Shown here: one piece after another, positions 2 to 45,537 of the stretch
How the letters are laid out: every line of letters starts with the position of its first letter
Position numbering within the stretch: the stretch's first letter is position 1
Origin: Candidatus Heimdallarchaeota archaeon
GTDB lineage: Archaea > Asgardarchaeota > Heimdallarchaeia > Hodarchaeales > Hodarchaeaceae
Direction of reading: 5' to 3'
Assembly (NCBI GenBank): GCA_020353515.1
Contig: CP070695.1
Coordinates: forward strand, 1,271,637 to 1,335,636
Length of the DNA stretch: 64,000 bases
The notes under the pieces: model-generated
The model's database searches: none
Seen by the model: only the letters and a program-made list of their open reading frames with translations
Told to the model about the DNA's origin: nothing
Made by a program: the position numbers and the translations under genes

Positions 2-1444
2 AAACTGCTCTTAGTAGCTGGAATTATCATAATAAGTATTAGCTTGCCAATTATGGGAATCATGGGAGGTGGAGAATCAGAAAAAGAAATAATAGCTGTG
101 TTCTTTGGTTCAAGTATGGATAAAAAAGTGAGTCAAGAGGTTGTGGCATCAACAGGAATATCAGCACGTTATTACAACATTTCTAAGATACAAGAGGACC
201 CATCATTTAAATTTGATAATGAGAGTATTGCAGCGATTTGGTGGATCAACGAATTACCTTTATCAATAGATTTAACCTTTGCAGGTGAAATAAATGAATG
301 GGAACAAGCAGGAAAAGGGTTATTTGTACTGAATCGTTATTTTAATAAAACACCACTCCAAGTATTGAAAAATTTCGGCATAAAAGCTTATGCACCAGTA
401 GTATATCCTATTAATGGGTCTTTCGTAAAACAAGAGTTGAATATAGTAGAAAACGAATCAATATTAACTTCAAATATCACTACTTTTGAAGTCAACTGTA
501 GCACAGCATGGGTAGAGGTTGATAATCAAATACAGATGCTGATGGAAGTTAAAAAACCTGAAATGGAACCTTTTTTGAATGATTTGACATCAGGTATTTG
601 GTTTGTAGACAGCCGTGTCATTGTAGGTAGTTTTTCGATCGAAATACCAATAGAAATTCCAGACTCCCAATTTAATTTACATGAGATAGATCAAGCCACA
701 TCAACAGAGATGATTGATATCTTAGGTCAACTTGTACAATTAACAATAAGGAGTTTACCCTCCGATAATGGTATTCAAATTCAGTTTGGAGATGTGAATC
801 AATTAACAACAATGGGTCTCGTTGTAATCGCGAGTGTTTTATCCATTCTCGTTTTGATAAAGGTAGGAGTGATATCAAAAATACGTGAAATCGTGGTGGG
901 AGGTTTATTGAGTTTATTCTTATTTTTCGCCCATATTGCTTATTCACCACAAAGACGACGAATCAATGAAACCGAACTCTTAGAAAATGAATTACGAGGC
1001 CAGATTGTACATTTCTTAACAGTGAAGGGGGAACAAGGGGCGCACTTACGGGAGATTCAAAGAGAAATAGGATGTGGGATTTCTTCCTTATTATGGCATT
1101 TACAAGCATTAGATGATTTTAATTTGATAACCCATGAGAAGATTGGAAAATATCATATTTTTTACCTTGTTGGGGCGAAGTCTGTTCAAATTTCAGAGAT
1201 AGCCTTGGCTCTCAAAAGTGATGTGGCAAAAGAATTGTGTCGTGTGCTGATAAGGAAAGGAAAACCTTTATCATTATCAAAAATCTCACAAGAAATTGAT
1301 GTTCATCACTCAAGTATTCAACATCACATTAAAAGATTAGAAGAATTAGGAATTATAATTTCGTTGAAGGAAAAGAAACGATCTAAGTATATAGTTGGCC
1401 CAAAACGTTTATCTTGGTTAAAGAGTCATTTGGAGGTGGCTTGA
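2..1444 (+). CDS. Membrane-anchored transcription regulator: extracellular N-domain, TM helices, tandem C-terminal winged HTH (5' end outside window)
   Basis: Frame is open from nt 2 (KLLLVAGIIIISISLP, signal-like). Two hydrophobic helices, then two ArsR/MarR-like HTHs (GAHLREIQREIGCGISSLLWHLQAL; LSLSKISQEIDVHHSSIQHHIKRLEELGII). Confidence 0.75.
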   Translation, partial: KLLLVAGIIIISISLPIMGIMGGGESEKEIIAVFFGSSMDKKVSQEVVASTGISARYYNISKIQEDPSFKFDNESIAAIWWINELPLSIDLTFAGEINEWEQAGKGLFVLNRYFNKTPLQVLKNFGIKAYAPVVYPINGSFVKQELNIVENESILTSNITTFEVNCSTAWVEVDNQIQMLMEVKKPEMEPFLNDLTSGIWFVDSRVIVGSFSIEIPIEIPDSQFNLHEIDQATSTEMIDILGQLVQLTIRSLPSDNGIQIQFGDVNQLTTMGLVVIASVLSILVLIKVGVISKIREIVVGGLLSLFLFFAHIAYSPQRRRINETELLENELRGQIVHFLTVKGEQGAHLREIQREIGCGISSLLWHLQALDDFNLITHEKIGKYHIFYLVGAKSVQISEIALALKSDVAKELCRVLIRKGKPLSLSKISQEIDVHHSSIQHHIKRLEELGIIISLKEKKRSKYIVGPKRLSWLKSHLEVA

Positions 1445-40748: not shown

Positions 40749-41187
40749 TACTCTTTATTTTTCTTTTTTGAAGAGAGGGTGTTAAAACCTATTTATAGTC
40801 TTATTAAGGCGTGGCTACTCATTTCTCTATAAATATTTATGTTTTCTTTTCTAAGTTTTCTACAGCCAATTGAATCGCGTTTTTTTAAAGAAAAAGGAAA
40901 AATATTAATTAAATAATTGAATACAGTACTACATCACTATTATGAGCAATTTCATTTTGAGACAGAAAAAATCTAAGTCAACCTACAATTCTGTATAAAG
41001 ATAAACATAGGATTATCGTGTAGAGTACGAATTGAGTTATTTGATTGGTTAAATGTAATAAGAAAAGCTTATTTTTGAAGTGAAATTTAACTCAGGGATG
41101 TTTCTTAGATTTCACTAGACTTTTTAAGTCAACTTTTGATATTATAATAATAATGGGTTTTATAGTATTGATGATTAGGAGATTATT

Positions 41188-42900
41188 TTGTTGAGAAAAA
41201 CAGTTGTAAGATCATCAAGAGTGCTTCTCACCCTCGCTGGTATAGGTTTCTTGGGTATGATCGTTGCACTTCTTTTTTTTACAGGAGTCGCAAATTCAAT
41301 TGATCAAACTGCTGATCCTGTAACATGGAGTAGAACGCTATTCGGATTTGATTATCGTGTAATAACAGCTTATAGCTTTTTTCTTGTTTTGATTGGCTTT
41401 CTTCCTGTCCTTGTTGTTATGGATGCCAGTGCAAAGAAGAGTGTTAAAAAAATCTATATTCATTTACTTTTAATATTTGGTATTGGATTATTAATGCTGA
41501 TCTATTCTGCTTTAGTTTATGGTACCTTTCTGACTCCAATCGATCCCCTTCAGACCTGGTTTGAGTATTTCATTCTTGCAGCTTTACTTATCGTCTTTGG
41601 GTTAATGCCACTTTTGTTTAGTATCCAAGACCATGAACGAGTGTGGAATTTTAAGCTTCTCTTTGCTCTATTTATTCTAATTGGGATTGTCCTTGAAATC
41701 ATTGGTATTGTTGTCTATAGCCAGATTATTGTAATTTCTGATATTGGATGGGATATCCTTTTCTTATTTGGAATTTTGATACTATTTCTAGGTGTTGTAC
41801 CACTTTTATTAACTGCTGGTCCAACTTTTCGTGAAAACCTTTATCGATTACGTATTATTTGGATCTTAGGTACGTTAATAGGGATTGTGATAATTCTGGT
41901 ATCTTATTTGACATACGCTGGGATCCTTGATCTTCCTGATATTGACTGGTTTGTAATTCTAGCCTTTGGAGGCCTTTTTACATTATTGGCTATTCTTCCA
42001 TTAACGAGTGTAGTACAACTGACTGAGACTATCCGTAAATTACGATTTATATGGTTAATTGCCCTTTTCCTTGGAATAATATCAGTAATAATTTCTGCGA
42101 TCCTAATCTTACCAGAGTCACCTGAAATTGAAGCAGCCGTCGGAACACTCCTCGGAACCTCACTCTTCGGGGCTACTTGGGATATTTTCTATATGTACGG
42201 AACTCTAATTATAATTCTTTCCCTCACATTCATATGTTCAATTGTATTCTTTGAAACCGAAGAAGTAAGTGGTCCAGCAGGATTAGTAGAAAGTCTTGAC
42301 AGATTGCCTGGCATTGAAACCACGCCAAGCGAGATGGTAGCCTATTTGGAGATTCTAAGCAAATCCCAAACAAATATGGTTAATCAATTTAAAGAAGCAG
42401 TCAGGGCAGATAAATTCCGCCCTCGGGTATATGAATTAATAATTAAGTTATATCAAGATCGAAATCGCGCGATAAAATCAAGAATATCACGATTCCAAAA
42501 GGCGGGAGCAGCAGTTTCTGCTGAAGAAGAAGTAGAAGCCTTGTTCGATGTTGCTCTGGGTGAACCCTCAGAGGCTCCAGGTGAACCACCTCTTCCTCCT
42601 ATCACGGAAGCCGTGACCCCCCCGACTCCTCCATCAGCACCTCCAACTCCCCCACCCACCCCACCGTCCACCCCACCACTTCCTCCATCTACTGCTCCAC
42701 CACTTCCTCCCTCTACAGGCACCCCACCTGCCCCCTCTTTAGGAGCCCCCCCTCCCCCTTCTCCTAGAGTTACACCAGGCCAACCATCAGAGTCACCACT
42801 TGATTTGATTGCTGATGCTAGGTCAACAAGCATTGCTGAATTACGTGGAGAAATGCTAAAAGAATTACGAAGACTTCGTGAGATCTTCAAGGAAGAATAA
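41188..42900 (+). CDS. Polytopic membrane protein (five 2-TM repeats) with polyproline tail and WH2-like C-terminus
   Basis: Repeating TM pairs; about 75-aa Pro-rich tract; C-terminal DARSTSIAELRGEMLKELRRLREIF. Confidence 0.7.
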   Translation: MLRKTVVRSSRVLLTLAGIGFLGMIVALLFFTGVANSIDQTADPVTWSRTLFGFDYRVITAYSFFLVLIGFLPVLVVMDASAKKSVKKIYIHLLLIFGIGLLMLIYSALVYGTFLTPIDPLQTWFEYFILAALLIVFGLMPLLFSIQDHERVWNFKLLFALFILIGIVLEIIGIVVYSQIIVISDIGWDILFLFGILILFLGVVPLLLTAGPTFRENLYRLRIIWILGTLIGIVIILVSYLTYAGILDLPDIDWFVILAFGGLFTLLAILPLTSVVQLTETIRKLRFIWLIALFLGIISVIISAILILPESPEIEAAVGTLLGTSLFGATWDIFYMYGTLIIILSLTFICSIVFFETEEVSGPAGLVESLDRLPGIETTPSEMVAYLEILSKSQTNMVNQFKEAVRADKFRPRVYELIIKLYQDRNRAIKSRISRFQKAGAAVSAEEEVEALFDVALGEPSEAPGEPPLPPITEAVTPPTPPSAPPTPPPTPPSTPPLPPSTAPPLPPSTGTPPAPSLGAPPPPSPRVTPGQPSESPLDLIADARSTSIAELRGEMLKELRRLREIFKEE

Positions 42901-43009: not shown

Positions 43010-44902
43010 TTAGACTTGTTTCCAGTATATTACCTCTTTATTTATCTCCAGAATTTCTATAAAAAACGCGTATGCCTTATTACGAGTCGCTATCTTAATC
43101 TTTCCCGATTTTGACGTTGTTCCTACAAAAAAAGGATCCTTTTTCTTATCTAATTGGTCTTGAGTGTAGAATTGAATTGTAGTGTTACTTATGCGCTTAG
43201 GAAAACTAATATACAGAGTTTTTTTTCTAAAAGAAATCATTTTTTCCTTCACAATACTGAATCCAGAGAGGTGGGAATCCCTATCTGATTTATCGACATC
43301 TAACCTAACATGAAATGTCCGTTCTAACATTCGGATGTTCTCTCCCCCCTTTCCTAGAATTGCTGGAATGTCTTTTTGAGCACATTGGATCTCAAATCTT
43401 TTCCCGTAACGATCTTTTGGTATTAAGACAATAGGTTGAGCTGTAAATTTCTCAATAGCATTCGTTAGGTTTTGAATAGTCCGTGCATCAATTAAAATTT
43501 GGTCATAATTCTCGGTTTCAAGTGGAATTACCACTGTCTGTTCTCCAAAAGTGTACATTTCATAGACCGGTTCCCCAGTCTCAAAATCTTTTACTTCCAC
43601 CACTGGTCGCGCTAGATCACTTTCAACCAACCCAGCTGGAACCTTAACTGTCATTTTTACATCTAAAACTCTTGTTATTTTTCCTGCTTCAATGTAAATG
43701 ATAGTATCAAGAACACTAGGGATCACACCCAATTCTAATCTCCCAATAAAGCGTTGAATGGCATCTATTGCTGTGCTAGAGTGAATTACTCCCACTAAAC
43801 CGATACCAGCCAATCGAAGGTCTGTATAAAGCTTAAAATCTTCTGTGTCTCTAATTTCATCAAAAATAGTATAATCTGGACGTGAAAGAAGGAGTATGTC
43901 ATGAATTTCCGTATGAGACCCGAAATTCTTGGAATACTGAGTAATTTCAGCTTTCAAATCTAAGTCCCGTGGTGATTCAATTGTTTTTACAATCTTAGAT
44001 TTTCCTTCATAAAAAAGAGCTAGGGCTCTAGTGAACGTGGTTTTCCCAGTTCCTGGGCTGCCTGCAACTAAAATCCCTTCCGCTTTTTCTTGTAGTCGTT
44101 GATAAAGGTTGGGGGATAGGTGATAATCATCAATTGTAAGTTTGACAAGGGGTTTTACTGCAGTAATTTCCCATCCATCTGAAAATGGAGGACGACAAAT
44201 AACAATCCGAATATTTCCATACTGAACAATTGTTGAACCTTTACGGTCGATCTCAATAAAAGAATCTTCAAATTGTTGTGCCTTTTCAATGATTTCTTCA
44301 TTTAATTGTTTAAGAAATCCCTTTGTACAAATTTTATCAGATGTTTGATCAAAGCTAACATTACCAGGAGACCCTCGTTTTCTAAAAACAGGAACTCCTT
44401 GTTTAAGATGGATACTCATAGTTCTTTCATCAAAATAATCCTCAATTTGAAGTCTTTTTTCCAGAGTCTTTCCTTTTTCTGGAATATGAATGACTTCTAA
44501 ACCAATTGATTTTGCAGCTAAATATTGAATCTTGTCTGATGTGACAAGAATACCTCCTTCTTTCCATGCAAAATCCCGAATGATCGCATCAATTTCACCA
44601 CTTCGAGCCCTTTTTATTTCAGAAAGATGTGGCCTTCGTCCTCCGTAATCTATCAGAATACCCTTCATATCACAAACACGACGGATATCTGTGAGTTCAT
44701 TTAATCCCTCAATCCCTATTCTTCTCCCATTATTCGCCTGATGTTCGAGTTCAGCTATTATCGAAGCATGGATTGTTATCTTGGAGATATCTTCGCTTTT
44801 TTTAGTTTCAAGAAGGTCTTTCAAACCTCCATTGATGATAGTTGAGGTGTCAGGAACATAAAAATTATCTTCTGAATTAATCGAGTATCTTCCCTCCATC
44901 AA
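43010..44902 (-). CDS. PINA: PIN-domain ATPase with KH domain (Holliday junction branch migration family)
   Basis: VPDTS PIN motif, GEIDAIIR, GSPGTGKT, ESPRDL, LLLSRPDYTIFDEIR, KH ILGKGG. Confidence 0.9.
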   Translation of the reverse strand: MMEGRYSINSEDNFYVPDTSTIINGGLKDLLETKKSEDISKITIHASIIAELEHQANNGRRIGIEGLNELTDIRRVCDMKGILIDYGGRRPHLSEIKRARSGEIDAIIRDFAWKEGGILVTSDKIQYLAAKSIGLEVIHIPEKGKTLEKRLQIEDYFDERTMSIHLKQGVPVFRKRGSPGNVSFDQTSDKICTKGFLKQLNEEIIEKAQQFEDSFIEIDRKGSTIVQYGNIRIVICRPPFSDGWEITAVKPLVKLTIDDYHLSPNLYQRLQEKAEGILVAGSPGTGKTTFTRALALFYEGKSKIVKTIESPRDLDLKAEITQYSKNFGSHTEIHDILLLSRPDYTIFDEIRDTEDFKLYTDLRLAGIGLVGVIHSSTAIDAIQRFIGRLELGVIPSVLDTIIYIEAGKITRVLDVKMTVKVPAGLVESDLARPVVEVKDFETGEPVYEMYTFGEQTVVIPLETENYDQILIDARTIQNLTNAIEKFTAQPIVLIPKDRYGKRFEIQCAQKDIPAILGKGGENIRMLERTFHVRLDVDKSDRDSHLSGFSIVKEKMISFRKKTLYISFPKRISNTTIQFYTQDQLDKKKDPFFVGTTSKSGKIKIATRNKAYAFFIEILEINKEVIYWKQV

Positions 44903-45537
44903 TTTTCCTCCTTATTTTCTTGATTAACTTGTGGTAATTCATCCCGATATTCGTATTCCAACTCATTACGTTCTAATTCTAATTGTGAGGCCTGGTAATA
45001 GGTGACATCCCCAAGACGGTCAACTACTGAGAGTAATAACGTTTTTCTGTCGATTTTAGACTGATTAACAAGTTGGTCTAAAAAATCAAGATCAAGATCT
45101 TCGCCTTCTGGAAGAGGAAAAATGACCTTTTTGCTTATCGATTCTCCTGGCTTTCCTCCTCGAGAATAAATTCGAAATGGTGCTGTAATTTGAGTTCCAA
45201 TTCGGACAACATAACCCCTATTCCTCAGATCCTTATAAACTAAATAACGACTCCAGAAAGTTTTGTTAATTTTAGTGAAATGAGTAACTAATTCAGACGA
45301 TGTAATCTTTTGATTCGTGGTTGAATTCATAACAATAATTCTTTTTCGATCCATGAGGAGTAAAACTTCTTCTGGTTCTAAAACAAGAGAATCTTTTGAA
45401 GTCCATTGTCCAAAATAACCATTATCGAAGATCTCTTGGGCAAGGTGATCATTAACCATTAGGGATGAGCCTTGCATATCAAAATACAATATTGGCACTG
45501 AAATTTCTTTATCCGTAGAATCTAGGTCATGAGACAT
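44899..45537 (-). CDS. endA: tRNA-splicing endonuclease subunit, probably structural (non-catalytic)
   Basis: GYFG, LEPEEVLLL, YLVYKDLRNRGYVVR, RKTLLLSVVD..GDVTYY; catalytic Tyr and His positions appear substituted. Confidence 0.85.
   Translation of the reverse strand: MSHDLDSTDKEISVPILYFDMQGSSLMVNDHLAQEIFDNGYFGQWTSKDSLVLEPEEVLLLMDRKRIIVMNSTTNQKITSSELVTHFTKINKTFWSRYLVYKDLRNRGYVVRIGTQITAPFRIYSRGGKPGESISKKVIFPLPEGEDLDLDFLDQLVNQSKIDRKTLLLSVVDRLGDVTYYQASQLELERNELEYEYRDELPQVNQENKEEN

Follow-up and report, generated by a model that had tools for sequence, protein, structure and literature searches.

Gene and Protein Architecture

The gene described here lies in a contig of Candidatus Heimdallarchaeota archaeon, within a stretch of 64,000 nucleotides that was analysed as a whole and is referred to as the window. 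The open reading frame (41188..42900, forward strand) is open for 570 codons. The start used in the database copy and in the homologs is the TTG at 41191, one codon downstream, which results in a protein of 569 aa. The gene is a real feature and encodes a ten-transmembrane (10-TM) protein that presents a conserved end helix on a proline-rich arm. The original prediction, made from the letters of the sequence, had listed the reading frame, about ten TM helices, a helical domain, a proline tract and a distinct tail, and all of these are confirmed. The features are collected in Table 1.

Table 1. Features of the 10-TM gene and its neighbors (window positions)
Feature	Positions	Strand	Basis
AGGAG, Shine-Dalgarno-like, ahead of the TTG starts 41188/41191	41177..41181	+	sequence; function inferred
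Complete gene; encodes a 569-aa 10-TM protein (Hodarchaeales form of the pan-Asgard family)	41191..42900	+	
Membrane domain, five two-TM repeats, N-in/C-in	41191..42258	+	hydropathy, charge bias, repeat profiles, AF2
Limits of the two-TM repeats: aa 4-78, 84-147, 149-211, 214-276, 280-356			
Cytosolic helical hairpin, steadiness-box/CdvA/OST1-C-like, aa 376-442	42316..42516	+	hhalign, fold matches
Disordered Pro-rich arm	42568..42789	+	sequence; AF2 pLDDT <50
PSAP motif, single, within the arm	42631..42642	+	sequence; putative function
Conserved C-terminal amphipathic helix (tail)	42790..42897	+	consensus [ST][IV][AS]xL[RK]xEM[LM]xELx[RK]L[KR]
PIN/ATPase/KH gene, synteny marker common with single-TM orthologs	43010..44902	-	cluster c1; Pfam on ortholog L073
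tRNA splicing endonuclease gene, synteny marker	44899..45537	-	cluster c2; Pfam on ortholog L041

Homologs of the full protein numbered 79 among 8000 candidates scored. All of the named ones bear Asgard labels, mostly of Hodarchaeales, which agrees with the Asgard host assumed originally. Conservation differs between the parts of the protein. In rows covering at least 80% of the region in question (of 78), identity to the query averages 0.52 over the TM part (73 rows), 0.65 over the hairpin (77 rows), 0.44 over the arm (44 rows) and 0.97 over the 36-aa tail (72 rows). The AF2 model features helices at aa 379-405 and 411-455, then disorder, and then a single helix at aa 536-568. With the entire model as query, Foldseek gave no PDB match at E 0.001, and an ESM Atlas search with aa 370-570 gave no usable match.

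The Membrane Domain

The ten hydrophobic segments are separated by loops with K/R counts of 4, 4, 2, 3 and 3 on the inner side and 2, 0, 0, 0 and 0 on the outer side, and this inside-positive bias places both the N- and the C-terminus in the cytosol. The TM part is modelled with a pLDDT of 92.5 and a pTM of 0.89. Profile comparisons determined that the five-fold TM repeat proposed originally is real, with the first repeat recovered weakly: adjacent repeats among repeats 2-5 are matched by hhalign with probabilities of 96-98%, the score for the third against the fourth being 61 compared to a maximum of 14.5 in 25 column shuffles, and repeat 1 reaches 67-70% at best. When the TM domain alone was used in a fold search, the matches at the top were all designed proteins, either helical repeats or barrels (Z 8.2, rmsd 5.3 over 270; Z 8.1). 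No natural fold exceeded Z 6.6, a result that does not imply a new fold.

The Cytosolic Hairpin

The membrane domain is followed by a helical hairpin whose second arm continues as a helix up to aa 455. The original prediction recorded a helical domain at this place, which is present, and missed that it resembles the steadiness box (SB) of Vps23 and CdvA. A profile of 14 diverse 10-TM hairpins matched the SB of 28 distinct Asgard UEV-Vps23 rows with an hhalign probability of 91% (E 9e-7) and a score of 32.5, compared to at most 16.5 in 40 column shuffles and 8.7 for the reversed profile. The corresponding profile from 15 single-TM members of the family reached 96%, and a profile built from 67 close homologs alone gave only 2.7%. 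A fold search that covered 48,161 chains placed four ESCRT-I chains, CdvA and an Asgard OST1 among the top 11 (Z 8.4-8.8), with unrelated hairpins tying in the same search (Z 8.4-9.1). The matches include 2F66_A (Z 8.8, rmsd 2.0 over 65 of 65), 2P22_A, 6VME_B, 2CAZ_D (Z 8.4, rmsd 1.2 over 60), 9S9G (Z 8.5, rmsd 1.9 over 71) and 8WHN. Weak to moderate Pfam matches were found in 16 hairpins for GvpG (6/16), CdvA (2/16, best E 3.9e-5), SHOCT (2/16) and Vps23_core (one). The best PDB sequence match of the hairpin is OST1 (E 0.0017), and within the genome the hairpin profiles rank the C-terminus of ribophorin I and an SPFH-like protein ahead of Vps23; the module is therefore not specific to ESCRT. 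The comparisons thus make the hairpin part of a broad superfamily of hairpins to which ESCRT-I and CdvA also belong. Membership in it is not enough to put the protein in the ESCRT system. A hairpin link between ESCRT-I and CdvA is also drawn in PMC11188069.

The protein differs from each of the characterized hairpin proteins. It carries a helical hairpin similar in profile to that of the Vps23/TSG101 core (PF09454), with a resemblance in fold that is tied with that of unrelated hairpins; unlike Vps23 and other SB proteins, it features an integral anchor, a Pro arm and an end helix, and no Pfam match to a UEV, a long stalk or Vps28-C was found in it. It also lies outside the ESCRT locus, with the ESCRT genes of this genome near C1:3.97 Mb and the 10-TM gene at 1.31 Mb. 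Vps4 is encoded at C1:3965495-3966688, and its MIT domain lies in the first 80 aa. Asgard SB fusions are described in PMC11188069 as patchy and absent from Hodarchaeia, whereas the tail family is near-universal. CdvA (PF18822; PDB 9S9G) has the same order of hairpin, flexible linker and C-terminal docking peptide, as outlined in PMC12818579; in contrast to CdvA, TM helices replace the PRC domain and there is no cdv operon context. The tail is a helix, and any likeness of it to E3B would be putative. The cytosolic domain of OST1/ribophorin I (PDB 8WHN; PMC11417166), SHOCT and GvpG likewise carry a hairpin immediately after a TM segment, but unlike OST1 the 10-TM protein has a single hairpin rather than a four-helix bundle, lacks a lumenal domain, and continues into an arm and a tail.

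The Proline-Rich Arm

The arm contains 34 Pro in 74 aa, with the PPLPP repeat that had been described present three times, and its longest Pro run is 4. Profilin-type sites are runs of at least five prolines. Such runs occur in 14 of the linkers of 67 close homologs, and PPPPP is not enriched in these linkers (17 observed compared to 19.9 in shuffled sequences). Two other motifs are enriched in the same linkers, P[ST]AP (78 vs 15 shuffled) and PP[LIM]P (79 vs 21 shuffled). In 34 other Asgard linkers P[ST]AP alone is enriched (29 vs 7.2), and PP[LIM]P is not (7 vs 4.6). P[ST]AP is approximately four- to five-fold above shuffles in all three linker groups, the counts being inflated throughout by kinship among relatives and by repeats. 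The composition of the arm also varies, with some orthologs being Glu-rich and Pro falling as low as 9%. The maximum run of 4, the lack of PPPPP enrichment and the Glu-rich arms leave the original reading of the tract as profilin-binding polyproline weak, and a spacer role fits the arm best.

The C-Terminal Helix

In the model the tail (aa 534-569) forms a single continuous helix. The helix is amphipathic, its surface residues (R/K, E) are conserved as much as its core residues, and L551 and M555 are invariant. It was originally described as WH2-like, a label that does not hold. Pfam WH2 (PF02205) gave no match in the protein or tail, at the locus in the genome, or in 29 aligned tails at E 5. 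The WH2 helix is followed by an L-basic-basic-T/V signature (PMC9433394), and the corresponding residues here are LRRL. In the 29 tails the fourth residue is L in 24 and I in 5, never T or V, and the second is K in 11, A in 5, R in 4, N in 4 and D in 2. Pfam VASP_tetra (PF08776) matched neither the tail positions in five genomes (E 5) nor the 29 tails. The protein resembles WASP/WAVE and Ena/VASP (PF02205, PF08776) in that a membrane-proximal Pro-rich arm precedes an amphipathic basic helix; it differs from them in being an integral membrane protein that matches neither profile and carries neither the signature nor the profilin-type runs.

Other likenesses of the tail are short. Weak GCN4 coiled-coil segments are its only PDB sequence matches above noise (E 0.15 or worse). 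The last 12 residues aligned to the C-termini of 30 Asgard ESCRT-IIIA proteins with an hhalign probability of 46%, a value obtained without a shuffle control, and the tail HMM reached E 0.2 at best on ESCRT-IIIA tails. The pattern behind this tentative likeness is a C-terminal E-x-x-x-E-L-x-x-L-K over 12 residues, and the ESCRT-IIIA C-termini are read as MIM1-like in PMC7240154; unlike ESCRT-IIIA, the tail has about 10 extra conserved residues upstream and there is no ESCRT-III core. Pfam OAR matched 11/29 tails (best E 0.0076, below the cut-off) and was rejected as a short chance likeness. Weak tail-profile matches also fall on an N-terminal amphipathic bundle-type helix (L143:1489-1860, +), whose gene product is presumably MscL-like, and on the ends of two membrane proteins that we take to be PH-like. 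One family member, P0090, carries three tandem tail copies at a spacing of about 41 aa, followed by a helical domain.

Distribution and Forms of the Family

The tail sequence by itself matched 121/301 Asgard genomes. A profile of 29 tails, derived from matches in these same 301 genomes, raised this to 257/301, including 83/90 good-quality genomes, mostly as a single copy. The tail carriers exist in three forms, a 10-TM form (Hodarchaeales), a single-TM form and a soluble form whose N-terminus is a coiled coil; in almost all of them the helix terminates a low-complexity arm, and every family member also has a coiled coil or a hairpin. All protein matches of the tail profile that carry names are Asgard. 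A pattern scan over one genome per species found at least 120 stretches; the 80 titled stretches listed comprise 62 C-terminal tails, 12 internal ones and 6 without a protein match, and the 62 listed C-terminal tails bear 50 Asgard titles, 10 titles of unclassified archaea and 2 other titles with Loki-type sequence. Loki-type tail proteins were seen at two loci under Bathyarchaeota and Nanopelagicaceae titles (L208, L213), which are probably mis-binned contigs. An ESM Atlas search with a single-TM member pointed to uncharacterised Thorarchaeota, Nitrososphaerota and Bathyarchaeota clusters (0.81-0.84), which serve as leads only.

The membrane forms occupy a common chromosomal position across Asgard families, from which we infer that the 10-TM gene is the ortholog of the single-TM forms with an anchor enlarged by repeats. 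In 13/15 loci with single-TM or gap-broken members there is a ribose-5-phosphate isomerase gene, which usually adjoins the member and is often accompanied by the PIN-ATPase and tRNA endonuclease genes seen beside the 10-TM gene in the window. The two tandem 10-TM loci also contain the isomerase, as do two further loci of f11.

Named members include the soluble WEU40329.1 from Odinarchaeum and the 10-TM proteins UCG90090.1 and UCG90088.1, all annotated as hypothetical, and a soluble homolog is encoded by the cultured Promethearchaeum syntrophicum MK-D1 (NZ_CP042905.2, L221). No description of the family was found in titles and passages of the literature covered, with subscription papers and bioRxiv supplements lying outside that coverage, nor in the available portions of PMC9433394, PMC7240154, PMC9192718, PMC11417166, PMC12818579, PMC12993045, PMC12050087, PMC11188069 and PMC13716822. 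The family may already be listed among the SB proteins in the supplements of PMC11188069. It is apparently an undescribed family of adaptors, near-universal in Asgard archaea and based on a hairpin that is already known.

Possible Genomic Links to Actin

The genome encodes actin, profilin and gelsolins, of which the first two had been expected of an Asgard archaeon. In family f14 a soluble tail gene is followed downstream by an actin paralog in the same orientation in 15/15 loci. These comprise 13 loci fetched together, four of which were picked with knowledge of the link and nine of which were not, together with two others (L045 and L060). The f14 paralog is 42% identical to the actin of this genome, and the two genes are directly adjacent in 4 of the 13 loci. 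The block (L045:5316-6923 and 14 other loci) consists of the tail gene, an optional intervening gene that is presumably deacetylase-like, the actin paralog, and a small last gene that we take to be helix-turn-helix-like. The link to actin is absent from 3/3 non-f14 loci and from L147, and it does not appear in the f27 and f29 loci.

The second link comes from lineages with divergent actin. The tail is found in 0/13 genomes of families f16, f21 and f24, in which actin is only 52-56% identical, and a repeated search of five tail-less genomes at E 1 recovered it in 0/5. In tail-bearing families the full-length main actins are at least 72% identical. Family f24 keeps full-length Vps4 in 4/4 genomes (44-49%) and ESCRT-IIIA in 3/4, and gelsolin was found in 0/4 of its genomes compared to 9/10 tail-bearing genomes. 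No match to a full-length Vps4 was found in f21 and f16. This co-loss rests on one or two related lineages with genomes that are 75-91% complete, and Pfam profilin, with matches in 4/20 genomes, is too insensitive for a co-loss test. In addition, two single incomplete genomes (G004 and G007) have an ordinary actin and lack the tail. Within Hodarchaeales the tail is near-invariant and so is actin (100% in a congener).

Proposed Function and Alternative Partners

The best explanation is that the protein is a membrane-anchored adaptor for the actin system whose tail binds actin or an actin paralog, to which, with the strict WH2/profilin version included, we assign a probability of about 0.4. The hairpin would pack with its own copies or with other hairpin proteins and thereby cluster the membrane form, the arm would mainly act as a spacer, and the end helix would bind actin or one of its paralogs, probably at the hydrophobic cleft. 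This cleft of actin is used by many actin-binding helices. The protein would tether or organise cortical actin in a linker-like manner without a WH2 domain or membership in the WASP family, and the data imply neither a nucleating nor an elongating activity. Of the membrane-tethered actin regulator proposed originally, the conserved cytosolic helix and the two genomic actin clues speak for the general idea; the WH2 label is not supported and the profilin reading is weak.

The actin reading is favored by the tail gene ahead of the f14 actin paralog, by the absence of the tail where actin has diverged, including f24 with Vps4 and without gelsolin, and by the near-invariance of both tail and actin in Hodarchaeales together with the all-Asgard names of the tail matches. 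Counted against it are the failed WH2 profile and signature, the restriction of the f14 link to one family, a paralog and a soluble form, often with the deacetylase-like gene in between, the location of the membrane form among housekeeping genes, the hairpin relatives in ESCRT-I and CdvA, the tail-less G004 and G007, and the few incomplete lineages behind the co-loss. A further point against it is that in the text of a Lokiactin co-immunoprecipitation study (PMC13716822) profilin, gelsolins, an ARF GTPase and BAR proteins are the only ones named. GNAMCCOK_00620, a putative homolog by purA synteny, is undetected in the proteome and the co-immunoprecipitation in supplement 13 of that paper, which allows no inference.

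It was also considered that the tail homo-oligomerises as a short coiled-coil bundle or binds another conserved Asgard partner, so that the protein is a structural membrane scaffold with no tie to actin or ESCRT. The continuous amphipathic helix, the GCN4 segments as its PDB matches, the weak matches to the presumed MscL-like and PH-like proteins, and the coiled coil or hairpin in every member are consistent with this. The unmatched VASP_tetra profile argues against it, and surface residues conserved like the core suit a partner; the tandem tails of P0090 would be an arrangement that docking motifs often adopt. We judge this alternative rather unlikely.

A membrane-anchored adaptor of the ESCRT system, similar to CdvA or ESCRT-0, is rather unlikely. 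In this case the hairpin would join ESCRT-I headpieces, P[ST]AP would bind the UEV of Vps23, and the MIM1-like end of the tail would be recognized by the MIT domain of Vps4. The SB match of the hairpin profiles, the five ESCRT-I and CdvA chains among the 11 top fold matches, the Pfam CdvA and Vps23_core matches, the ESCRT-IIIA-like last 12 residues, the enrichment of P[ST]AP in every linker group and the CdvA-like layout all point in this direction. They are offset by the lack of specificity of the hairpin module, by the low probability from the close homologs alone, by the invariant first half of the tail, which lies outside the MIM1 match, and by f24, which keeps Vps4 yet has no tail. Family f11 has the tail (65/76) and an SB-bearing membrane form, yet a UEV-Vps23 match was found in 0/9 of its genomes, which weakens the P[ST]AP route. 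ESCRT-III genes occur in a fetched locus only for G038, about 10 kb away.

A strict WASP/WAVE/VASP-type factor, with a polyproline stretch to recruit profilin-actin and a WH2 domain to pass it on to filaments, is a subset of the best explanation and is improbable: the Pro tract followed by a helix, the resemblance of LRRL to the WH2 four-residue motif, the PP[LIM]P enrichment in close homologs and the weak polyproline binding of some Asgard profilins (about 300 uM, according to PMC9433394) are outweighed by the unmatched WH2 profile and signature in 29 tails, the lack of PPPPP enrichment with runs of at least five in 14 of the 67 close linkers, the lack of PP[LIM]P enrichment beyond Hodarchaeales and arms in which Pro falls to 9%. 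A partner outside all of these readings is given a very slim chance.

Under the preferred actin reading, the family could further be the missing membrane-actin link of Asgard archaea, ancestral and near-universal, in which ESCRT-I/CdvA-type hairpins cluster and a non-WH2 helix captures actin; this wider proposal is possible but doubtful. If it is true, the soluble form would serve the actin paralog in Lokiarchaeia, the 10-TM form would be an elaboration of Hodarchaeales, and the family would be a functional forerunner of the eukaryotic filament-tethering and elongation factors, with ESCRT-type modules tied to the actin cortex. Actin underlies Asgard protrusions and crawling, and the established regulators are only profilins and gelsolins, according to PMC13716822; Asgard machinery that recruits profilin-actin is described in PMC9433394 as not yet discovered. 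With actin as the partner, the family would be a candidate for connecting the membrane to the actin skeleton in the archaea closest to eukaryotes. Each of the three partners would be informative: the protein would prove to be a linker of membrane and actin, the Asgard equivalent of CdvA/ESCRT-0, or a scaffold of a new type. The soluble homolog in cultured MK-D1 makes in vivo work possible.

Related Genes

The genome carries a second 10-TM paralog, P0022, that is 72% identical (G000:C1:400180-401460, -; L001:10058-11464). P0022 is broken by an assembly gap right after the hairpin. What is recorded as a single "contig" is in fact a scaffold containing many N gaps, which makes the context of the paralog uninformative. 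Several congeners have two tandem 10-TM copies. Three other Pro-rich proteins of the genome, each with short helices of a similar kind, were not recovered by the tail profile. Two of them, with loosely similar ends (C1:1351324-1351923 and 714580-715227), were excluded; the third is encoded at G000:C1:1913915-1915651. At G000:C1:2911382-2912179 (+; L036) lies the gene for a soluble protein that also ends in this tail (E 4e-10). Its neighbors are genes for a small GTPase and a roadblock protein and an alpha-2-macroglobulin-like gene, with actin about 25 kb away on the scaffold, and this neighborhood is kept in two other loci (L053 and L069). Beside the soluble tail gene of several Asgard families lies an unannotated gene of 84-130 aa (cluster c3, no Pfam match), which is found in loci L046, L050, L054, L060, L061, L064, L065 and L145.
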